Shown: positions 1,619-55,858 of the stretch, one piece after another | How the letters are laid out: every line of letters starts with the position of its first letter | Position numbering within the stretch: position 1 is the first letter of the stretch | Origin: an uncultured Pseudomonadales bacterium | Lineage (GTDB): Bacteria; Patescibacteriota; Microgenomatia; UBA1400; PJMF01 | NCBI GenBank assembly: GCA_964521215.1 | Contig: CAZFRD010000003.1 | Coordinates: forward strand, 425 to 64,424 | Reading direction: 5' to 3' | DNA: 64,000 bases | Program-made: the position numbers and the translations under genes | Notes under the pieces: model-generated | Seen by the model: only the letters and a program-made list of their open reading frames with translations | Told to the model about the DNA's origin: nothing | The model's database searches: none

Positions 1619-2602
1619 CTATACGACCTTTAAACAATTATTCTCCGTTTTTTTCCACCACGTCATTTGTCTTTTTGCATACTGGAATTCGTGAAGGGCC
1701 CAAAGTTGTTGACAGTTTTCTGCAGAAATTTCTCCATTTAGATAACTGCGAATTTCTGGCACGCCAAGCGTTGTTAGTACTGGGGCTGATGCTGGTAATT
1801 TAAGTTTGAGTAGATTTTTTACCTCTTGTATTGCGCCGCTGGCAAACCGTTTTTCTACTCGTTGTTTAATTCGCTTTTCTATTAGCTCCAGCGGCGCTGT
1901 GACTAATTCCACGTGATTATCAACTTGGCTCCACAGCATCGGCGAATTGGTTGATTTAGTCAGTGAGCCACTTCCATGTTTTTTTTGCCAAGTTGCCACC
2001 TCAATAGCACGAAGCAACCTTCGAGAATTCTCTCTGTCCGAATCATTCATCTGCTCCAACCGAGCTGAATCGATCTCTGCTAACCATCGTTGTAAATCCG
2101 CTACCGACATGTTTTCCGCCTTGCGTCTCATAGTTAAGTCTTGAGGAATTTGGGGTGTTACGTCATCAGAAAATAAATGTTTGTGATACAGCCCTGTGCC
2201 TCCTACCAGCATTGGTTGACGATTATTCGACCAGCTCCACTGCATAATTTCTCTTGCAAAGTTGACAAAATGAGCGAGAGACCACTCTGCAGTTGGATCG
2301 ATCATCGAAATTCCAAAGATTCGAATAGAGCCGTCTATATTTGTGAAGTAGTTAGGGTTGCTCTGAGGGGTGTCACACTGAGCATGTCGAAGTGTGACAA
2401 CCTCAAACCCCTCCGGCACATCCGCACCCGTCAAAATCTCCAATCCCTTATACACTTGCCTGGAGTCGGCACTGATCACATCCACCCCCGCCACTTTTTT
2501 CTCTCTCACCAATTGGCCAGCAATCGCCAAAGCTCTATCCGTCTTACCACAGGCGGTGGGACCAACAACAGAAATGCAGTGATTCGCTTGATCAATTTTC
2601 AT
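1619..2602 (-). CDS. miaA: tRNA dimethylallyltransferase
   Basis: N-terminal P-loop VVGPTACGKT and overall MiaA-like sequence. Overlaps the downstream NUDIX gene by 4 nt. Contains an in-frame palindromic repeat copy (see the repeat feature at 2367..2404). Confidence 0.85.
   Translation of the reverse strand: MKIDQANHCISVVGPTACGKTDRALAIAGQLVREKKVAGVDVISADSRQVYKGLEILTGADVPEGFEVVTLRHAQCDTPQSNPNYFTNIDGSIRIFGISMIDPTAEWSLAHFVNFAREIMQWSWSNNRQPMLVGGTGLYHKHLFSDDVTPQIPQDLTMRRKAENMSVADLQRWLAEIDSARLEQMNDSDRENSRRLLRAIEVATWQKKHGSGSLTKSTNSPMLWSQVDNHVELVTAPLELIEKRIKQRVEKRFASGAIQEVKNLLKLKLPASAPVLTTLGVPEIRSYLNGEISAENCQQLWALHEFQYAKRQMTWWKKTENNCLKVV
2367..2404. repeat. palindromic repeat unit, in-frame inside miaA
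   Basis: Sequence ggggtGTCACACTGAGCATGTCGAAGTGTGACaacctc. Perfect 8-bp inverted repeat GTCACACT/AGTGTGAC around an 11-nt loop. Same family as the units at 4681-4810 and 54226-54474. Confidence 0.7.
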
Positions 2603-3495: not shown

Positions 3496-4665
3496 TCAGA
3501 TAACCTTAGGTCTTCTCTTTAAATTGTCTTTATTGATCATCTGATCTAAAATTTCCCACCGGCGTTTTTTTTCTTTGTGAGGAATATCGTCTGGATAGAT
3601 CCGCCAACTAGCAGTACCAGGGCGAGGAGAGTACATCGCCACAAAACCTACATGCCAATCCATCTGCTTGGCCAGTTCCAGTGTTTCTTGAAATTCCTCT
3701 TCTGTTTCGCCGGCAAAACCAACGACAATATCAGTGCCGATAACAATATTCGGATCAGCCGATCTCAGTTTATTCACAACTTCAATATAAGTTTCTCTGG
3801 TGTAACCCCGGTTCATCCGATACAAAACAGCGTTGCTTCCAGACTGAACTGGTAAATGCACATAGCGATCAATTTTCTGATTCTTGCCAATTTCTGCAAT
3901 CAACTCATCATGAAAATCCCAAGGATTACTCGTCATAAACCGAATAGTTTTAACTTCGTCAAAGGCCGAAATCGCTTGGAGTAATTTCACAAACGGCGGC
4001 GTTTCGGTCGGCTTAAGATACTGCGACTGATTCTCCGGCAAATCTTCTCGATTAAAATCTGCCTTTTCCAACATCAACTTGCGAAAGCCAATCCCCACTT
4101 TTTCCAACCCCCAGGAATTCACATTCATACCCAACAAAGTAATTTCTTCGTAGCCCTGATCAACCAGCCTCTTTACTTCCTCCATAATGCTGGCAAATGG
4201 CCGAGACTGCTCTCTACCTCTGGAATAGGGGACGATGCAGTAGGTACAAAAAGAGTTGCAGCCAGTCGAGATGGGAATCCAAGCGTGCTTAGTATCTTTC
4301 CTTACAGCTGCTTGATTAAAACCAACCTCGTTAATCGGTAAAATTTCATCAATAATCGGCATCATGGTATACAATTTTTCATTGCCATGATGCACCATAC
4401 AACCGGTTAGAATTATCTTCGGTCGCTGTCTACCTTGTTCATTAAAATACACTGCCACCGTGTGCAAAAAACCTCTGGCACGATCTTCTGCCGACTGTCT
4501 GACAGCACAAGTGTTGATCACTAGTTCATCACAGGTTTGCCAATCGCTGGCTTCTGAATAACCACGAGCCTGATAATCACCAGCAATCCGCTCGCTATCG
4601 GACTTGTTGGACTGGCAACCAAAAGTATGAATAAAATATGTTGGCATGAAGGGATAGTGTAACAC
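3496..4665 (-). CDS. miaB: tRNA methylthiotransferase (radical SAM MTTase)
   Basis: N-terminal MTTase motif TFGCQSN and radical-SAM CxxxCxxC (CNSFCTYC). Sits adjacent to miaA. Confidence 0.75.
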   Translation of the reverse strand: MLHYPFMPTYFIHTFGCQSNKSDSERIAGDYQARGYSEASDWQTCDELVINTCAVRQSAEDRARGFLHTVAVYFNEQGRQRPKIILTGCMVHHGNEKLYTMMPIIDEILPINEVGFNQAAVRKDTKHAWIPISTGCNSFCTYCIVPYSRGREQSRPFASIMEEVKRLVDQGYEEITLLGMNVNSWGLEKVGIGFRKLMLEKADFNREDLPENQSQYLKPTETPPFVKLLQAISAFDEVKTIRFMTSNPWDFHDELIAEIGKNQKIDRYVHLPVQSGSNAVLYRMNRGYTRETYIEVVNKLRSADPNIVIGTDIVVGFAGETEEEFQETLELAKQMDWHVGFVAMYSPRPGTASWRIYPDDIPHKEKKRRWEILDQMINKDNLKRRPKVI

Positions 4666-4680
4666 TAACCCAATGTCTGC

Positions 4681-4726
4681 TTCGACACGCTTCGATAAAC
4701 TCAGCGTGACATCAGCATGACATTGG
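4681..4726. repeat. palindromic repeat unit (reverse orientation) plus partial inverse half
   Basis: ttcgacacgcTTCGATAAACTCAGCGTGAC is the reverse complement of GTCACGCTGAGTTTATCGAAGCGTG. It is followed by atcagcatgaca, which is also found at 54291-54306. Confidence 0.6.
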
Positions 4727-4747
4727 TTTAGTCATTTTGAGTAAGAC

Positions 4748-4810
4748 GGGTTGTCACACTGAGCAGTATCCCTGAGTTCATCGAGGGGTTGTCGAAGTGC
4801 GACAACCCCT
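4748..4810. repeat. palindromic repeat unit with ~27-nt loop insertion
   Basis: gggttGTCACACTGAGC[agtatccctgagttcatcgagggg]TTGTCGAAGTGCGACaacccc. The terminal GGGGTTGTCG/CGACAACCCC is a perfect 10-bp inverted repeat. The element encodes the last 9 codons and the TGA stop of the upstream minus-strand ORF. Confidence 0.65.
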
Positions 4811-5452
4811 TAACCAAGAATAAATTTCAAGCAATCCAACCACTAGTAATAACAATGCCGCAGGTTTCGACTGCATGGCCACATGAGCAAAGATCAACCA
4901 AAGAGCAACGTAGGTCAGTCGTTGTAAAACTTTCCAAGATTTACCAAGCTTTTTCATCGATAGATCATTTGAAGTTAACCAAACTGGCAAGAGTAACAAC
5001 CAAGCGATTAGGGCAACTTGTTCAAACAAACGGAAGGGAGTGGGGAAGACAACAGTACCAGTTGAAACTAATTGAATTGCGATATACGGCAAAGTACTAG
5101 AGAAGCTCATGTGCACAAACGCCGTGGTAAACATCAGAATACCCAAGTGACGACGAAAGGGGGTAATCAGGGTGGCAATGGGTAAAGTTACCAGAGGCAC
5201 TATTTTTAAACGCTTCAAGATACCGGGAAGTAAAGTCAGACAAAATAAAAGTAGTGCTGTAGTACCCAGTTTTCTCCCGATGTTCAGCACCACAAATACT
5301 TGCTGAGGACTTAATATTGCAGTCAAGAGAGCCAAAAGCCAGATCAGCACCAAAAAAATTTCGATAATAAACAAACCAGTATTAATCTGCCTTTGGCGAG
5401 GAATTAGTTGTTTTTGGACAAATAGTAGCAAATCGCTTAAGTTTTTTTGCAT
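4778..5452 (-). CDS. polytopic membrane protein (His in TM helices; possibly ferric-reductase/MsrQ-like)
   Basis: 224 aa with several hydrophobic segments containing His (FRRHLG, FVHMSF, FAHVA). The C-terminal GCRTSTTPR and stop are encoded by the palindromic element. Confidence 0.45.
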   Translation of the reverse strand: MQKNLSDLLLFVQKQLIPRQRQINTGLFIIEIFLVLIWLLALLTAILSPQQVFVVLNIGRKLGTTALLLFCLTLLPGILKRLKIVPLVTLPIATLITPFRRHLGILMFTTAFVHMSFSSTLPYIAIQLVSTGTVVFPTPFRLFEQVALIAWLLLLPVWLTSNDLSMKKLGKSWKVLQRLTYVALWLIFAHVAMQSKPAALLLLVVGLLEIYSWLRGCRTSTTPR

Positions 5453-6163: not shown

Positions 6164-6994
6164 CTAGAGAGTTTTTAGCTCAAACTCGGTGCCACCGGCG
6201 GGATAATCAAAGCGCACAGCGGCGGTTTTTTCGCTCATGTGATGAACTCGTAAAAAGAGTTCGACAAACGGGTTGTCGTACCCGCTAGAACCAGCATTGA
6301 CTGCCAAGACGCCTCGATCCACCGTGAATCCACCCGTAGCGACAACCCCCAACATGCTGACGCCATTACAGATCACTTGCACACTTTGACCAACCGTGAA
6401 ACCGCGTTTATCCAGATCTGATTTACGCATGGTGGTTTTAATATTGCCAAACCCATCGGTCCAAGCAATTAAATTGGATGGAATGTTGGGAATATCGGCC
6501 ACTGATAATTCTTTAGTTAAAATTGAGCGATCGCCGTTGAGCAAGCGAGCCACTCTTTCAGGAAAAAAATCACGAGAGCGAAATTGAGAGCCCTTATCTG
6601 GGCAATCAATTTCGCGAAACTCAACAATTTCAGATTTAACAAAACCAAAAGCAAATTCGCTCCAAACATTGATAATCTCAACCCCATTTTTTAAGCGGGC
6701 ATATTTAATACCATGATCAATGTTTGATTTAACCGCCCGAGCGGTATCTCTCCTTGGGGCGGCGTTGCCATAAATCACCATCTTGCCTTGGTTGGGTGCA
6801 AAGGCGTACTGGGCAGTGACGAAGCCAACCGCCATGGTATCTAGCGATGGTACTTCGGTGGGGTGGATCCGCACGCCGTGCGGATCCAGCAGATGATATT
6901 GAAGTCTGTTGGTAATTTCTCCAAACTCCATACCGCCCGCTTTATAGTCGCAGATAACATGTAATAGGGTGGGGGACTGAGCTATTTTTTTCAT
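6164..6994 (-). CDS. SAM hydroxide adenosyltransferase-like protein (DUF62 / fluorinase-chlorinase fold)
   Basis: SQFRSRDFFPERVARLL resembles the FHGRDIFAP motif, and WTDGFGNIKTT resembles IDxFGNLITN. The N-terminal CDYxAGG segment resembles TDFGxxDxYVG. Confidence 0.5.
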   Translation of the reverse strand: MKKIAQSPTLLHVICDYKAGGMEFGEITNRLQYHLLDPHGVRIHPTEVPSLDTMAVGFVTAQYAFAPNQGKMVIYGNAAPRRDTARAVKSNIDHGIKYARLKNGVEIINVWSEFAFGFVKSEIVEFREIDCPDKGSQFRSRDFFPERVARLLNGDRSILTKELSVADIPNIPSNLIAWTDGFGNIKTTMRKSDLDKRGFTVGQSVQVICNGVSMLGVVATGGFTVDRGVLAVNAGSSGYDNPFVELFLRVHHMSEKTAAVRFDYPAGGTEFELKTL

Positions 6995-33168: not shown

Positions 33169-36100
33169 GTGTGGAAATATTTTTGGAAATTATTTGTTAT
33201 TGCATCATTATTTTTTGTTCTCGTAGTTTTTAAACCTCTAAATACCGCTGAAGCTTACTGTAATCCAGACCTCTGGCATGATGCAACAAGTTGTCAGTCT
33301 AGTTGCACAAAAACACAATACAACGACTGCGACGTAACCAATACTAGAGTAGTATCATGTACTGGGGGTAGTTGTGCAGATCCGACTGCTACGCCAGGTG
33401 GTAATCCCAATGTTCGCTGTGGCAGTTGTACCTGCCCAGATGGAAGTACTAAAGCAAAGTGGTGTACCCCCGATTGCTCTGCCACTAACGCCTGTTGGTG
33501 TGATCCATGTGGAGGAGGTGGCGGGGGAGGGGGGAATAGTTGCTGTATGTTAGATGAGAATTGTACTGCTAGTAACTCATGTTACAACTGTAGTCCTGGT
33601 AACTGTAGAGGTTTTTGTGACTCCAATAATGAATGTTCGGCAGCGAGCTACGAAGGCGCCTGTACATATCGTTGTATAGCGGATCCCACCTCACCTCCTG
33701 GTTCCACACCCACTCCAACCTTTCCACCGCTTTGTGGCAACCTCAGCGTCGACCCTGGCGAGGCGTGTGATAATTACATTTACAATAGCAATACAGTCCC
33801 TAATGCCTGTCGGCTGAACTGCCAGTGGCCAGTCTGTGGCGATTTTGTAGTAGATAATACAAACGCCACTCACGGGGGGGTCAACGAAGAATGCGATGCC
33901 GGCGCTGGCAACAGCACCACTGGTTACTGTTCCAACAGTTGTTTACAACTACCCGAATATTCAAATTCTTGTAATCTGATAACTATTGGGCCTTATGCTT
34001 ATGATGGCGTGGACTTTACCTACTCGTACCGAGCGCAAAGTAACGCCAATACTCCAGGTAGTTACTCACCATCGCTACAAATGACTCACCTCAGAAACAA
34101 ATTAGGGATAGATCTTACCCCGCCCAATATTATGTATAGCGAAATAATTCCAAGTTGTAGTAATTACTCATGCACTTCCAACCAAACAATGACCATCGAT
34201 GGTGATTACTTGGTAGTGGATGGAGTAGGTCATAGTTTAACAGTAGGTGTCAATGTCTGGTCAACTATTGAGGGTGAGGCACACCAGTGCGAAACAAGCT
34301 GGTATAGCTCCACCTCGCCAGCATGGCCCAACGAAAACTCACTTAATGGCTGTGATAACAACTGCCGAACTACCATACCAATTATTAATAAGGTAGAGGC
34401 TGCCTGTAACAACTTCACTGTTGACGCTAGTACGATCAATGCAAGTAGTAACTTAACCATCACAGGAACAACTACGACTAATTTATCAGTGGGTCAAGTG
34501 GTACTACAGTACCAAATTCTTAAGGAAGATAACTCCACCACCACTTGGGAAGCCGTTCCAGGAGCAGCTTGCACCGCTACTGGCTCAGATTGGACATGTA
34601 CCAATGTTATTCTTCCTGAATTATTAGAAACTGACCAAGAAGTGAGATTTGATTTGATTCCACTAGTTACAGTTGCCTGTTCGAATATTACGCATCATAG
34701 CGATCAAAGTACGACCGACTGCCTAGTAGCGGCTGGTCCAACTACCGCAGTAAGATGTCGATCTTGGGGCTGGGCCGCTGGCTTGCCTCCCAACGACCAT
34801 CCCAACACTTCTTGTAGCAGTAGTTGTTATGTGGCTTTACCCGTCGGTGCTGTGCCTTATACCCCCACACCCACCCCCACAGTTACACTCACCCCCATTC
34901 CAACCAATACTGCCACACCAACGCCCATTGGAGCGCCCACCGCCACGCCCACCCACACACCCACACCCACACCTACGCCCACTTCTTCCGTACCAACGGC
35001 CACACCCACCAATACTCCTGCCGTGGCACCAGCATTCTGGGGTGAATTATTTTACGACTTCAACAACAATGGAGTTTATGAAACTCAATGTGACGTGGGC
35101 CATATCGTCGAAAAAATTGATTATGCCACCTTTGGCTGTACCGGAGCAGGTTGTACCGACTGCTCGCCCAAAGCTGCACTCGCTGCCCTAATTGGACCAC
35201 TCAACCGGTCACTAGAAGGATTTGAATTATTGGTGGAGGGCACCGGTTTCATTTGGCTCCCCAATCCCAAAATCAGACTCGCACCCTACAGTAGTAATCC
35301 GTTTTACTCGTGGAACGTGGCGCAAAATAATTCTTATACCCTGACTTTGACAGATCCTCGTTCCACCGTCCGTAACTGTAGCGTCACTACTGGTAATCCT
35401 CGCAATATCTCGGTGGGCACTTCCAATGTGGGCAATATTAACACCGGTATCATCTGTAGCCCTCCTTCCACACCCACACCAACGCCCACTCCCACAGCCA
35501 CCGTTACACCCACACCCACCGTCACACCCACTTCCACGCCCACACCCACGCCCACGCCTGGTCCCTATTGGCAAATCCAAGGTGGCAATCTCTTTTCTAA
35601 TGGCGATACTACTGTATTATTGCCAGATCTCTCGTCACTCGGCACCTCAATTCATTTAGCCGATAAATATCCAAATTCTGCTCTCAATATTAGCGCTGGT
35701 GCGGCCATTAGCAATGGATTACTATCAATCGGTTCTGGTTCACTTAATGATTTTTCGGCAAATTTTTCGGGTGAAAAAGTTGAAGAAACTAGCAGCTCGA
35801 TCTGTAGTGATTACACTTTTGCCAGTTTTGCGGATAGTTTAGATTTAGCTCATTTAACATCACAAGGGCCTTTATCAGGAACTATGATTGTCCAAGATTT
35901 CGACAATATATATGGTTCAGCTGTCGATCGGGGAGATTACAAAATTTTCTATCGCTCAGATGATCTACGCCTCAATATCGGAGTATTGTGGGAAGTTAAT
36001 GCAGATCCACCAAACAACAACAAACCCACCATCGTAGTGGTTGATGGAGATCTTGAAGTTGCCTCCATCGGAGGTTTGGAACAACTCATTGACCTAAATC

Positions 36101-36471
36101 CAAATACATTTCTTGGCTTTATTGTCTCTGGCGATATCATTTTTGAAAGCTCAGTGGGCAACAACGTTAGTTCTTCAACTATACCTCCAGGAATTCCAGA
36201 CAACGAACTAAGCAATGTAGAGGGCTTATTCTTCTCGACCGGAAAACCAACCGGTGGCGGTAATGTTATCGTCCAATCAGCCACTCTACCCGCAGAGGAT
36301 AAACGCTTCGTGGGTGAGGGCACATTCATTGGCTGTGCTGGTGTAGAGTTACAGCGAGCCCTTCAAATCAATAATAATAAAACTGAGATATTCCGTTTCA
36401 AACCAGACTTACTATTGAACGTACCAACCGACTTAAGAGAGGCACATATATCATGGCAAGAAATCAACTAG
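33169..36471 (+). CDS. 1100-aa cysteine-rich secreted protein with Myxococcus-type Cys-rich repeats, poly-Gly and PT linkers (candidate pilus-associated adhesin)
   Basis: Signal peptide. Two repeats of the form CGxxxVDPGEACD / CGDFVVD...EECDAGAGNS..YCSNSC. A GGGGGGGGNSCC tract. PTPTPT linkers at ~34858-35025 and ~35465-35565. The stop overlaps the start of the pilin gene at 36453. Confidence 0.7.
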   Translation: MWKYFWKLFVIASLFFVLVVFKPLNTAEAYCNPDLWHDATSCQSSCTKTQYNDCDVTNTRVVSCTGGSCADPTATPGGNPNVRCGSCTCPDGSTKAKWCTPDCSATNACWCDPCGGGGGGGGNSCCMLDENCTASNSCYNCSPGNCRGFCDSNNECSAASYEGACTYRCIADPTSPPGSTPTPTFPPLCGNLSVDPGEACDNYIYNSNTVPNACRLNCQWPVCGDFVVDNTNATHGGVNEECDAGAGNSTTGYCSNSCLQLPEYSNSCNLITIGPYAYDGVDFTYSYRAQSNANTPGSYSPSLQMTHLRNKLGIDLTPPNIMYSEIIPSCSNYSCTSNQTMTIDGDYLVVDGVGHSLTVGVNVWSTIEGEAHQCETSWYSSTSPAWPNENSLNGCDNNCRTTIPIINKVEAACNNFTVDASTINASSNLTITGTTTTNLSVGQVVLQYQILKEDNSTTTWEAVPGAACTATGSDWTCTNVILPELLETDQEVRFDLIPLVTVACSNITHHSDQSTTDCLVAAGPTTAVRCRSWGWAAGLPPNDHPNTSCSSSCYVALPVGAVPYTPTPTPTVTLTPIPTNTATPTPIGAPTATPTHTPTPTPTPTSSVPTATPTNTPAVAPAFWGELFYDFNNNGVYETQCDVGHIVEKIDYATFGCTGAGCTDCSPKAALAALIGPLNRSLEGFELLVEGTGFIWLPNPKIRLAPYSSNPFYSWNVAQNNSYTLTLTDPRSTVRNCSVTTGNPRNISVGTSNVGNINTGIICSPPSTPTPTPTPTATVTPTPTVTPTSTPTPTPTPGPYWQIQGGNLFSNGDTTVLLPDLSSLGTSIHLADKYPNSALNISAGAAISNGLLSIGSGSLNDFSANFSGEKVEETSSSICSDYTFASFADSLDLAHLTSQGPLSGTMIVQDFDNIYGSAVDRGDYKIFYRSDDLRLNIGVLWEVNADPPNNNKPTIVVVDGDLEVASIGGLEQLIDLNPNTFLGFIVSGDIIFESSVGNNVSSSTIPPGIPDNELSNVEGLFFSTGKPTGGGNVIVQSATLPAEDKRFVGEGTFIGCAGVELQRALQINNNKTEIFRFKPDLLLNVPTDLREAHISWQEIN

Positions 36472-53120: not shown

Positions 53121-54059
53121 CTACTTAAAATCTGAGTGAAATTTGTGATGAGCCTGCTTGAGCTGTGGTCTGGTGACGTGCGTGTAAATTTGTGTCGTAC
53201 CAATATCTTTGTGACCCAACATTTCTTGAACATCACGGAGTGAAGCGCCATTACTCAACAAATCCGTGGCAAATGAATGACGAATACCGTGGGGGGAGAC
53301 TCTAATAGGCAAACGGGCTTTACGACAGTAGGTATCCACCAGGCGCTGAACACTCCGTGCCGTCAAGCGCATCTCTTCTCCGTCGGAAAGAATATCTGGT
53401 TGTTTGCCAGAAAAACGAATAAACACCGGGTCCCAATTATCTCGACGAGTGTTCAGCCAACGCTCCAACCAGCTCTTGGCTCGATCACTCAAGAACACCA
53501 CACGTGGACGCCTTCCCTTACCAATCACCCCAAACTCTTGAGAGGTCATGTTGACTTGATCACGATTGAGGTTGACCAACTCACTTACCCGCAAACCAGT
53601 AGAAAACAGCACTTCCAGTAACGCCTTATCTCTCAAGCCCGATTGTGAGGATAAATCTGGTTGTCCGAGCAAGCGCTCGATACTTTCTATTGGCAAGAAC
53701 TTCATTAGACGAGCTTCTGCCTTGGGTAAATCAATTTTTTCTGGCTGAATCACTGGTACGTCGTTTTTTACCAACCATTTCAGCCAGGATCGTAAACCGA
53801 TGACATAGTAACTTTGAGTCCGTTTCGAGAGGGTTTCGCCTTCATCATCTTCATATCTTGCTAGATAAATGCGATACTTTCTAATAACTTCCTTATCTAT
53901 TTGTCTCACATCGTCAATTTCTAGATCTTTTAGCCAAGTACAAAATCGTCGTAAATATAATGAATAATTGCGAATGGTCAGTCGACTCACGTTGCGTTCA
54001 ATTTCTAAATGTTCTAAATATTGGGTTAAAAGTAAAAATGGTTCAGTCGGAAATGCCAT
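53121..54059 (-). CDS. tyrosine-type site-specific recombinase/integrase (XerC/XerD/phage-integrase family)
   Basis: N-terminal SAM-like domain. Catalytic region HGIRHSFATDLL...LGHKDIGTTQIYTHV with R, H-x-x-R and Y. Confidence 0.85.
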   Translation of the reverse strand: MAFPTEPFLLLTQYLEHLEIERNVSRLTIRNYSLYLRRFCTWLKDLEIDDVRQIDKEVIRKYRIYLARYEDDEGETLSKRTQSYYVIGLRSWLKWLVKNDVPVIQPEKIDLPKAEARLMKFLPIESIERLLGQPDLSSQSGLRDKALLEVLFSTGLRVSELVNLNRDQVNMTSQEFGVIGKGRRPRVVFLSDRAKSWLERWLNTRRDNWDPVFIRFSGKQPDILSDGEEMRLTARSVQRLVDTYCRKARLPIRVSPHGIRHSFATDLLSNGASLRDVQEMLGHKDIGTTQIYTHVTRPQLKQAHHKFHSDFK

Positions 54060-54225
54060 GCTTGAATTACTATATCAGAAATCAGCAACCGGCTTCTAGC
54101 AACGGTTAATTTTGTTTTAGCTTGTCTTATCAACTTATTACCGTTCTCTACATGGTGGATAGGTTCTCTATTGCCCCAAAATCGGCTTTTTACTAGTGTG
54201 GATGACCAGTTAATCATTGTATTTT

Positions 54226-54310
54226 GGGTGTCATGCTGAGCCTGTCGAAGCATGAATAGCCAAACTCAGCATGACACCCAAATTCAGAGTGACATCAGCA
54301 TGACACCAGC
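54226..54310. repeat. composite palindromic repeat (unit + inverse half + partial unit)
   Basis: GGGTGTCATGCTGAGCCTGTCGAAGCATGA-atagccaaa-CTCAGCATGACACCC. Outer 15-bp perfect inverted repeat. Followed by agagtgacatcagcatgacacc. Confidence 0.7.
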
Positions 54311-54344
54311 CCAGCCTCTGATTGTATATCTGGTTGTACCTCAA

Positions 54345-54380
54345 GTTGTCACACTGAACCTGTCGAAGTGTGACAACGAG
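54345..54380. repeat. palindromic repeat unit
   Basis: aGTTGTCACACTGAACCTGTCGAAGTGTGACAACgag, a 10-bp perfect inverted repeat. Confidence 0.7.
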
Positions 54381-54440
54381 CATAGAGACAGGCGAGCAAT
54401 GTCTGCCTTAGTGAACTCAAAGTAGCGCCTGGATGAACTA

Positions 54441-54474
54441 AATGTCATGCTGAATTTATCGAAGCAGACATTAC
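54441..54474. repeat. degenerate palindromic repeat unit
   Basis: aaTGTCATGCTGAATTTATCGAAGCAGACAttac. Confidence 0.5.
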
Positions 54475-54806
54475 TAAAGCCAACCATATTTTTTTAGATA
54501 CAATGTCGTAAAAGTAATATTGTGCGACATAATAGATTTGTGAAGATTGACCAATTGTGGTGGGGGAAGTAGTCCCCCTCTAACTTGCTTAAACAAGAAA
54601 TTATTTGTTTGCTTAAATTCATCTCTGATGCTAGTTAAACCCCACCCCAAGGGTACCTTCAAATATCGATAAAAAGATGATCTTCGTATGGTCTCCAGTA
54701 TGGGTTCGGGTTATTTATTCCCGCATCACTACCACACAGCGATTTACACACACAATTTACTCGAGTTATAGTCTTATAATAATTAAGTTTTCCACATTCT
54801 ACTCAG

Positions 54807-55090: not shown

Positions 55091-55858
55091 TTATTTACCT
55101 GGGAAAAGTAATAAGAATAGAATCAGAGAAACCACTGTCACTAGAGAATATTCTCGAATGGTTTTTAAAAATAGTCGACCTTTGAGATAACTTTGAAACA
55201 CACCTAAGCCGATGTACATGACAGACATGATTAGTAGACCGATCGCCCAGACGGCATAGGGAATAAATGAGAGGCCGATCGCCAACTCAAACACAGCCAG
55301 GGTAAGCAGTCCAGTTAAAATCCAGTCTGTCTGGTCGAAAGTATTTCTCAGTTGGACGCTCCAAATAGACATAGCAATCAGAGGCAAGTGAATCATGGCT
55401 ACCAATCCAGCTGCCACGACAAAAGGCAAATTAAGGGTAAAAATCGTATTAGTGACTAAGAACGAAATTAATAAGCTGAAAAACAAAGCAATTGTTTGAG
55501 CGGCATAAAGTAGTTGGATGGTTCTGCCTTTGGCCACGGAGAAGATATTGCCCGTTAGCAAAAGCGCATACATGCCAACCCCAAACAAAACCATGAAAAG
55601 CACTCTTTTGGGCGTACTAGCGGGCAAGACAAAATAAAAACTAGCGATAGCCAGCGCATACAGCGTGGGCAATGGCAAAATAGTGAAATATTCATTTTTT
55701 TGCAAATCTTCTGCCAATGCCCACGCTGACAATCCGTAGGTCAGCAGGCCAAAAGCGAAAAGCGACCAAATTCTCCAACCGGCAGGAATTAGCAACACTC
55801 CAAGTAAGGCAAACCCCAACACTAATGAGGTAATGATAAATTTTTCTCTCCGTCTCAT
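55091..55858 (-). CDS. polytopic membrane protein, hypothetical
   Basis: About 8 hydrophobic segments. Overlaps the yebC-like gene by 4 nt. Confidence 0.45.
   Translation of the reverse strand: MRRREKFIITSLVLGFALLGVLLIPAGWRIWSLFAFGLLTYGLSAWALAEDLQKNEYFTILPLPTLYALAIASFYFVLPASTPKRVLFMVLFGVGMYALLLTGNIFSVAKGRTIQLLYAAQTIALFFSLLISFLVTNTIFTLNLPFVVAAGLVAMIHLPLIAMSIWSVQLRNTFDQTDWILTGLLTLAVFELAIGLSFIPYAVWAIGLLIMSVMYIGLGVFQSYLKGRLFLKTIREYSLVTVVSLILFLLLFPGK

Follow-up and report, generated by a model that had tools for sequence, protein, structure and literature searches.

A cluster of palindromic repeats, probably repetitive extragenic palindromes, encodes the C-terminal end of a YedZ/MsrQ-like protein next to miaB

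Introduction

Repetitive extragenic palindromes (REPs) are short, palindromic, multi-copy sequences that are mostly extragenic and located near gene ends (PMC12306157). Among described repeats, those closest to the ones reported here are the CGTC-tagged REPs, a superfamily (Di Nocera, De Gregorio and Rocco 2013) that includes dRS3 of Neisseria and RPE-4 and RPE-6 of Rickettsia. Its members have an unpaired terminal CGTC, TGTC or CCTC tag and a short unpaired 3' tail, which is mostly CCA; their 8-9-bp stems start with A-T pairs and enclose loops of 4-5 nt. They form head-to-head dimers, lie downstream of genes with some in-frame intragenic copies, and have no dedicated transposase (PMC3733652). 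In this work we analysed a repeat cluster at positions 4678-4810 of a 64,000-nt stretch of DNA (contig CAZFRD010000003.1, positions 425 to 64,424; hereafter the window) from an uncultured bacterium of the Patescibacteriota. Hairpin units of a single family occupy the gap between a YedZ/MsrQ-like gene and miaB, and we show that they encode the last ten codons and the TGA stop of the former (open reading frame (ORF) 4778..5452). We consider the cluster a member of a dispersed family of REP-type repeats in an arrangement like that of bacterial interspersed mosaic elements (BIMEs), with a probability of roughly three in four, because the units are mostly intergenic, enriched downstream of genes, without orientation bias and organised in alternating arrays.

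The repeat cluster encodes the end of the YedZ/MsrQ-like gene

The gene order on the minus strand is YedZ/MsrQ-like (4778..5452), miaB (3496..4647) and miaA (1619..2602). The first codes for a ferric-reductase-like membrane protein of 224 aa (Pfam PF01794, E = 3.9e-10), and miaB, coding for a radical-SAM methylthiotransferase (PF04055 and PF00919), follows 130 nt downstream in the same orientation. Read on the minus strand, 4810..4778 is AGG GGT TGT CGC ACT TCG ACA ACC CCT CGA TGA, which translates to RGCRTSTTPR*. The initial annotation, made from the letters of the window, had proposed that the element itself encodes the last nine codons (GCRTSTTPR) and the stop of this ORF. Its coding role is borne out, with ten codons in place of nine, and the TGA is indeed repeat-derived, albeit placed in a degenerate unit and not in a canonical one. 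A perfect hairpin, AGGGGTTGTCG-(5 nt)-CGACAACCCCT, with arms at 4784-4794 and 4800-4810, lies wholly within these last codons; it had been described as a perfect 10-bp inverted repeat, and it is perfect over 11 bp. The hairpin (4784..4810) folds at -12.7 kcal/mol as DNA (z = -7.0) and at -18.5 kcal/mol as RNA.

The cluster has a BIME-like layout, in which minus-strand units (4678-4722) face plus-strand units (4748-4810). The plus-strand group begins, on the side of the YedZ-like gene, with one half of unit 1 (4790..4810), composed of the half-centre TGTCGAAG and the arm TGCGACAACCCC; in gene orientation this is the first arm and half-centre GGGGTTGTCGCACTTCGACA at position 1 of the array (4809-4790), and it is homologous to the matching half of an intact unit in the orthologous loci L001, L002 and L004. 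It is followed by the degenerate unit GTATCCCTGAGTTCATCGAGGGGT (also written ATCCCTGAGTTCATCGAGGGGT; 4766..4789, plus strand; ACCCCTCGATGAACTCAGGGATAC in gene orientation), whose apical loop contains the TGA stop (4780-4778, minus strand), and by an arm with half-centre, GGGTTGTCACACTGAGCA (4748..4765, plus strand; TGCTCAGTGTGACAACCC in gene orientation, 4765-4748), the counterpart of the final half-unit in the L001/L002 array. A piece homologous to the degenerate unit, ACCCTTCTAACTCAGGGTTAC, is found further downstream in L001 and L002. This region had been interpreted as a forward unit split by a 27-nt loop insertion, which does not agree with the orthologous loci: the piece between the two halves (24-27 nt, depending on the boundaries chosen) is the degenerate unit, juxtaposed by a 58-nt deletion. 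A true nested insertion in this unit was rejected, given that L001, L002 and L004 share an intact first unit and a downstream degenerate unit.

A 25-nt spacer (4723..4747), kept in L001 and L002 (GTCTTACTCAAAATGACTAAACC), separates the two oppositely oriented groups. Beyond it, adjoining miaB, there is a nested double unit (4678..4722, minus strand), with outer arms TGTCATGCTGA (4722-4712) and TCGAAGCAGACA (4689-4678) and an inner unit, TGTCACGCTGAGTTTATCGAAGCGTG (4711-4686), which is a 21-nt addition relative to L001, L002 and L004. The reverse unit reported initially, GTCACGCTGAGTTTATCGAAGCGTG, is present here at 4686-4710 of the minus strand, with none expected in shuffled sequences, and occupies the loop of the outer unit. 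The neighbouring ATCAGCATGACA (4711-4722), previously taken as a stray fragment, is instead an arm of that outer unit (minus strand 4722-4712). The second exact copy of ATCAGCATGACA exists as claimed, at 54294-54305 rather than 54291, and with three one-mismatch copies between 54229 and 54454 there are 5 matches, against 0.48 expected.

A 14-nt inverted repeat brackets the nested double unit (4722-4678), giving an extended hairpin (4663..4732, minus strand) with arms ACTAAACCAATG and CATTGGGTTAG and a DNA fold of -20 kcal/mol (z = -7.3). Its counterpart in the orthologues displays a compensatory stem change, with CCCAATG/CATTGGG in L001 and L002 versus CCAAATG/CATTTGG in L004. As RNA, the region 4640-4830 folds at -71.3 kcal/mol (z = -6.5), a value reached by none of 200 shuffled sequences, and RNA folding places the stop codon in a predicted 13-bp helix between the oppositely oriented units. 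No terminator-like or promoter-like consensus was found in the cluster (4660-4810), and neither strand has a T-run after the hairpins.

Orthologous loci form an evolutionary series

We found 54 homologues of the YedZ-like protein and compared their C-terminal tails. The commonest orthologue endings are of the type ..SWVxVWRR(K/N/H)(Q/T)(K/V), and the window peptide is terminal in none of the 20 other aligned orthologues, in agreement with the initial proposal that the element remodelled the 3' end of the gene; one protein, P0002, shares with the window tail the element-derived LRGCRTST, its first eight residues. At the DNA level, nine orthologous loci were compared (L001, L002, L004, L005, L007, L008, L009, L371 and L372), and in each of the nine relatives retrieved miaB is the direct neighbour of the YedZ-like gene. 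Every deviating tail in these loci is a translated repeat unit.

The simplest arrangement is that of L005 and L007, where the spacer has 23 nt, the tails are WRRNTV* and WRQNTV*, no unit is present, and the gene end CAGTGTGA resembles one leftover arm. In L371 and L372 (spacer of 48 nt) the tail is WRRKQK*, ending in TAG, and a complete unit, TCACACTTCGATGTGCTCAGTGTGAC, begins directly after the stop. The same unit is read through in frame in L008 and L009, with tails GSHTLAASV* and ASRTSSSSV* and a 23-nt spacer. An array of five to seven units and half-units replaces the old tail in L004 (spacer of 93 nt; tail VVALRQAQCDNLSRSV, also given as LRQAQCDNLSRSV), and a similar array, read in another frame, gives the tail LRGCRTSTGSV* in L001 and L002 (spacers of 147 and 165 nt). 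The window belongs with these last three loci, its array also replacing the old tail with one that ends in CRTSTTPR*.

Alignment of the window with L001 and L002 (alignment A3) reveals two differences, a loss of 58 nt and a gain of 21 nt. The missing 58 nt are the stretch between two CGACA repeats, and their loss joins the first half-unit to the degenerate unit and changes the tail from ..TGSV* to ..TTPR*; the 21 extra nt are the inner hairpin of the miaB-proximal unit. Since L004, L001 and L002 share an intact first unit, the window state is the derived one. Taken together, the compared gene ends show that the original tail was WRR(K/N)xx and that short indels at direct repeats have remodelled the cluster.

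On a neighbour-joining tree of the proteins, calculated with the tails excluded, the unit-free and unit-bearing states are interleaved, and thus several gains or losses took place at this exact site. We also considered a "hairpin completion", in which a 24-nt insert would have paired with a pre-existing gene end (L008 and L009 versus L007), and dropped it in view of the complete unit just after the TAG in L371 and L372. For the same reason the gene end CAGTGTGA of L005 and L007 is more simply read as the putative leftover arm of a lost unit.

Further copies of the unit in the window

A covariance model built from 90 unrelated metagenomic units only (R1) recognises the miaB-proximal unit at 4678-4716 (minus strand; 33.6 bits, E = 9.5e-8) and four more intact units, at 2366-2404, 54231-54255, 54342-54380 and 54438-54475, the window matches reaching E = 3e-11; the split unit at 4748-4810 obtains only 7 bits with this model. 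The window thus contains five intact and at least six partial units, at three loci. Near-identical units, including the flanking GGGTTGTCACAC..GTGTGACAAC, are present at the unrelated loci 2366-2404 and 54342-54380.

The first of these copies (2366..2404, plus strand; 43.8 bits, E = 8e-11) is inside miaA (ORF 1619..2602, minus strand), where it is read in frame as VTLRHAQCDT. The corresponding site has a diverged copy in L001 and a nested pair, LRLPFDKLRVTSQHD, in L005 (12486-12535), and at the same position of miaA in L009 (~6380-6440) there is a different palindrome with 8-bp arms, GGATGCGT..ACGCATCC. Judging from these alleles, the miaA site seems to tolerate or attract hairpin inserts.

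The second, larger cluster (54225..54475) comprises three intact units and several half-units, with a fold z of -4.2. It is located in a 1-kb spacer between a gene for a XerC/D-type tyrosine recombinase (53121..54059, minus strand), of which it lies directly upstream, and a membrane-protein gene (55091..55858, minus strand). A spurious ORF of 75 aa (54026..54253) begins with the translated repeat MLRQAQHD.

A repeat family present in many phyla

The units of this family, 27-37 nt long, are built from a 5' (T/C)GTC tag followed by A-Y, two to three covarying pairs, a 15-nt centre, CTGAGCYTGTCGAAG, and a complementary 3' arm, giving the consensus (T)GTCAYR-CTGAGCYTGTCGAAG-YRTGAC. In alignment A4, 19 of 27 columns are invariant. 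Among 185 distinct genomic units, the two pairs flanking the centre are Watson-Crick in 92% of cases (41-49% in shuffled units), with three to four pair types each, and the two or three centre-adjacent pairs alone are strongly complementary, so that the top of the hairpin is conserved and its base is variable. The 5' flank is conserved in sequence, either as cgtc, tgtc or cctc plus A-Y, or as ccgttcg; the TGTC tag is found in 83 of 115 units of the subfamily, whereas the cross-phylum set includes cgtc, tgtc and cctc. For the TC of the tag, pairing in the generic set does not exceed that of shuffled controls; in the window copies TGTC pairs with GACA. Column counts gave no conserved CCA after the 3' arm, the window copies continuing with AAC, ACC or similar.

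The stem would read A-T, Y-R, R-Y, C-G, T-A, G.A, A.G, G-C, with two positions as G.A mismatches and not base pairs. In this reading the centre would extend the helix through C-G, T-A, a tandem G.A/A.G mismatch and G-C, up to a 5-nt loop, and sheared pairs are proposed because both GA steps have the Y-GA-R context. This context is one that favours sheared G.A pairs. Nearest-neighbour folding omits G.A pairs, and neither supports nor refutes the pairing proposed for the centre. The apical loop is mostly C-YT-G or T-TT-A, its two variable ends co-varying, with mixed forms in a minority (A4 columns 18 and 21). In DNA hairpins, CTTG and TTTA are known to fold into compact loops of two residues, which hints that stability at the DNA level matters.

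A taxonomic scan with one genome per species, using the centre with minimal flanks, retrieved at least 120 loci. Among the matches listed, the centre is present in Alpha-, Beta-, Gamma- and Deltaproteobacteria, Chloroflexota, Dehalococcoidia, Bacteroidota, Nitrospirota, Cyanobacteria, Eremiobacterota, Verrucomicrobia, Ignavibacteria, Zixibacteria and Paceibacterota. The 27-nt pattern was found in more than 120 unrelated metagenomic contigs and, in viral contigs, about half of the centre-only matches have the same flanks.

The genomic context was analysed in the AT-rich subfamily to which the window units belong, drawn from the metagenome scan. Most units are intergenic (106 of 125), convergent spacers are enriched (20/58 vs 47/342) and divergent ones depleted (p = 3e-4), and 17 of the 106 lie at most 15 nt from a stop codon, the median stop distance being 62 nt. 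With respect to the gene that turns its 3' end to the unit, orientation shows no bias (54 same, 52 opposite), nor was a significant one detectable relative to local GC skew. Arrays of alternating orientation are common, as in L279 (3951+, 4011-, 4057+, 4118-, 4164+), L251 and L329, and a second hairpin or unit in the apical loop recurs in unrelated contigs. In a Vulcanimicrobiota contig (L202, 4481-5708), two opposed cross-phylum units flank fragments of an IS5-type transposase, an arrangement that fits REP-type repeats being targets of insertion sequences.

Comparison with described repeats and structured elements

The units have the general features of REPs, namely a stem-loop of about 14-40 nt, a shared consensus and a mostly extragenic location near gene ends, to which the copies in miaA and in the YedZ-like 3' end are exceptions, and like BIMEs they form alternating clusters with short spacers. 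The present family resembles the CGTC superfamily in the sequence of the tag (CGTC, TGTC or CCTC), followed by a stem starting with A-T or A-C, in opposed dimers and clusters, in gene-downstream placement and in in-frame copies, including C-termini; for neither is a dedicated transposase known. The overall geometry would fit as well, with about 8-9 stem positions, of which two are G.A mismatches, and a 5-nt loop (CYTGT). It differs in that five inner stem positions are invariant, two of them non-Watson-Crick (CTGAG opposite CGAAG). LRQAQ, SLSK, FDKLR and ELVEG, peptides characteristic of the present family, do not appear in the published table of intragenic REPs (PMC3733652). One CGTC-2 peptide of the supplement, RHSELVSGS, has a back-translation compatible with CGTCATTCTGAGCTTGT.. 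(PMC3733652), a lead only.

The REP/BIME repeats of Escherichia coli and those of the REPIN-RAYT (REP-associated tyrosine transposase) systems are likewise short imperfect palindromes, mostly extragenic near gene 3' ends, and they are multi-copy, as the present units would be; as in the E. coli REP/BIME arrays, alternating units fold into larger hairpins and some copies are at most 15 nt from a stop. In contrast to the E. coli REPs, the present family conserves the top of the hairpin and not its base, and whereas REP/RAYT pairs are usually lineage-specific, the present centre is common to many phyla. A GTAG-type REPIN with its RAYT was rejected, as there is no GTAG at the unit ends and no RAYT gene was seen among the ORFs between unit pairs or the best 25 Pfam families of the window. 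The Rickettsia palindromic elements (RPEs) resemble our units in being tolerated within functional ORFs, as seen in miaA (VTLRHAQCDT) and in the YedZ-like tail, but the classical RPE-1 has 100-150 bp and is restricted to Rickettsia, whereas the units described here have 27-37 nt and are mostly intergenic. A miniature inverted-repeat transposable element (70-300 bp, with inverted repeats of 15-30 bp and a target duplication) was also rejected, since comparison of occupied and empty sites (L371/L372 versus L005/L007, and the window versus L001) gave indels of 21-25 nt with no duplicated target.

As in intrinsic terminators, a G+C-containing hairpin is found just downstream of a stop codon, but the units lack a T-run, are equally frequent in both orientations and also occur inside genes; with no terminator site or U-run in 4660-4810, this assignment was rejected. 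An integron attC site was ruled out on the features tested, and a hammerhead-like core, suggested by the CUGA..GAA motif, was discarded because the required G8 and A9 are absent from the sequence. Rfam searches detected only three tRNAs at gathering score in the whole window, chance-level matches only in 4550-4900 (E up to 10), and no match in 18 genomic loci that carry units. Literature string searches with the DNA centre or with typical translated peptides returned nothing relevant.

Alternative explanations

The alternative that survives best, although we consider it rather unlikely, is that selection maintains the cluster as a cis-acting RNA structure between co-transcribed genes, for which the repeats were just raw material. 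It would uncouple the expression of the YedZ-like gene from that of miaB as a stabiliser, attenuator or processing site, or act as a brake on termination at the YedZ-like stop codon. The unit is found at the same junction in relatives whose proteins are only 52-80% identical to that of the window, the miaB-proximal extended stem has the compensatory double change described above, the predicted RNA fold is very strong and includes the stop codon in a helix, and across the family units are over-represented downstream of genes. E. coli REPs at most 15 nt from the stop are reported to cause ribosome stalling and lower expression (cited in PMC12306157). A selected element is nevertheless difficult to reconcile with the close relatives L005 and L007, which have no unit, with the interleaving of states on the tree, and with a unit number, order and orientation that differ in each lineage. 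The even split of orientations relative to transcription across the family, the lack of a U-tract or terminator-like site, and the presence of the same unit within the miaA coding sequence also speak against it.

It is improbable, to a greater degree, that the cluster arose through replication errors alone in a quasi-palindromic spacer (slippage, template switching and duplication of half-units), with no dispersed element involved. Such events are visible in the 58-nt deletion between CGACA direct repeats and the 21-nt hairpin-loop indel that distinguish the window from L001, in the tandem half-units of about 22-nt period in L001, L002 and L004, and in the 24-25-nt indels at the hairpin between loci with and without the unit. 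However, near-identical units stand at unrelated loci of the window (2366-2404 and 54342-54380), and the same pattern recurs in the metagenomic contigs, its 15-nt centre in many phyla. Slippage accounts for the remodelling of the cluster and not for the origin of the unit, and as a sole cause it is largely refuted by the dispersed copies. That the cluster is an artefact, produced by chimeric joining at the repeats during assembly or by a sequencing error that lengthened the annotated ORF, is very improbable. Assemblers can be misled by short inverted repeats, and the assembly is of metagenome type, but the Logan contig SRR9038830, possibly derived from the same reads as the window, is identical over 1184 nt from the ORF end through the cluster to the miaB start, two sources have recorded an identical 224-aa protein, and L001, L002, L003 and L004, which come from other samples, carry homologous clusters that begin and end with the same units.

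Several observations weigh against assigning the cluster to a dispersed REP-type family. In the 64-kb window, copies are known from only three loci. No transposase, including Y1 types, is present in the best 25 Pfam families among the 66 window ORFs, where the only recombinase is of the XerC/D type; the genes between unit pairs in L209, L202 and L298, examined as mobilising candidates, were an unrelated small protein, IS5 fragments and a membrane protein. Two features of the CGTC superfamily, the unpaired tag and the CCA tail, are lacking in the window copies, in which TGTC pairs with GACA. Pairing within the 15-nt centre rests on general rules for tandem G.A mismatches, and folding programs leave its inner 11 nt (GAGCYTGTCGA) as an open loop. 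Lastly, a selected local function would also be compatible with the persistence of the unit at the YedZ-like/miaB junction at only ~52-55% protein identity (L009, L371) and with the single compensatory stem change that distinguishes L001/L002 from L004.

History of the locus and proposed behaviour of the units

Comparison of the loci shows the following course. In relatives, a spacer of 23-48 nt separates the YedZ-like gene from miaB, and in many lineages a single unit, gained or lost repeatedly, is located at the stop codon. In the window lineage this unit expanded, and the resulting array of units and half-units took the place of the basic tail WRRKQK. The 58-nt deletion between the CGACA repeats then fused the first half-unit to the degenerate unit, converting CRTSTGSV* into CRTSTTPR*, and a 21-nt piece added the second hairpin in the loop of the miaB-proximal unit. 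The tail that was lost is short, basic and cytoplasmic, past the last transmembrane helix, which is presumably why the new one is tolerated, and the repeat-encoded peptide is, we infer, a tolerated by-product and not a designed feature.

The units would behave as DNA-level palindromes, which spread by a mobilising activity and by replication slippage, decay by slippage, and accumulate where they are harmless, mainly just downstream of genes. Once transcribed, the cluster is predicted to form a long, irregular hairpin (about 140 nt), the basal helix of which contains the stop codon. Such a hairpin would be expected to hinder 3' exonucleases, protecting the upstream message, and to delay the termination of translation. 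Effects on the expression of the YedZ-like protein or of miaB, if any, would thus be secondary.

A more speculative, and on balance doubtful, proposal is that the 15-nt centre is a structural module common to many phyla, with tandem sheared G.A pairs capped by a CTTG/TTTA-type miniloop or by a further hairpin, and that a widely distributed enzyme, responsible for mobilising orphan CGTC-type REPs, recognises it in single-stranded DNA. If this were true, the hairpins within loops would have arisen by insertion directed at the apical loops of units already present, and the module would be a pointer to the mobilisation machinery of this repeat class from Patescibacteria to Proteobacteria.

The miaB start and other features of the window

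The cluster plausibly lies within the 5' leader of miaB, given that the two genes are co-oriented and only 130 nt apart. The start of miaB is the ATG at 4647-4645, with an alternative GTG at 4665 (both minus strand). Just upstream of it, GTGTTACACTATCCCTTC is kept in all orthologous loci. The segment (A/G)TGTTACACTA that precedes the ATG (4645-4665) is conserved at the DNA level in the equivalents of L001-L009, L371 and L372, and the codon-like triplet adjoining it varies (CCC, CGT, ACC, CAT). In the unit-free loci, this segment and the gene end form a 9-bp hairpin, AGTGTGACA-AGGA-TGTTACACT. The segment resembles an extended -10 element (TGnTACACT) that ends 8 nt before the ATG, and there is no Shine-Dalgarno sequence; miaB may therefore be expressed from a leaderless or structured start.

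The window has a G+C content of 44%, and the closest named homologue of the YedZ-like membrane protein belongs to Candidatus Woesebacteria. A degenerate repeat of 12 or 18 nt (CCCACNCCCACN..) is present in an ORF of 1100 aa (33169-36471), especially at 34865-35567, where it codes for a Thr/Pro-rich low-complexity region. Five ORFs nearby have an N-terminal methylation (pilin-like) motif and are found beside genes for type IV pilus assembly.

Significance

The repeat-made gene end is real and, as a by-product of a widespread repeat family, fairly ordinary. The locus offers a clean, stepwise natural series in which a tiny palindromic repeat shifts a stop codon and swaps the C-terminus of a protein, with five different tail solutions among close relatives. 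For the annotation of repeat-bearing genomes of uncultivated bacteria it carries a warning, as tails or inserts such as 'LRQAQ', 'SLSK' and 'CRTST' are translated repeats. The consequences for the biology of miaB or of the YedZ-like protein are probably minor. REP-type elements are documented here in a reduced genome of the Candidate Phyla Radiation, and the single hairpin centre common to many bacterial phyla points to an under-described, cross-phylum REP family.

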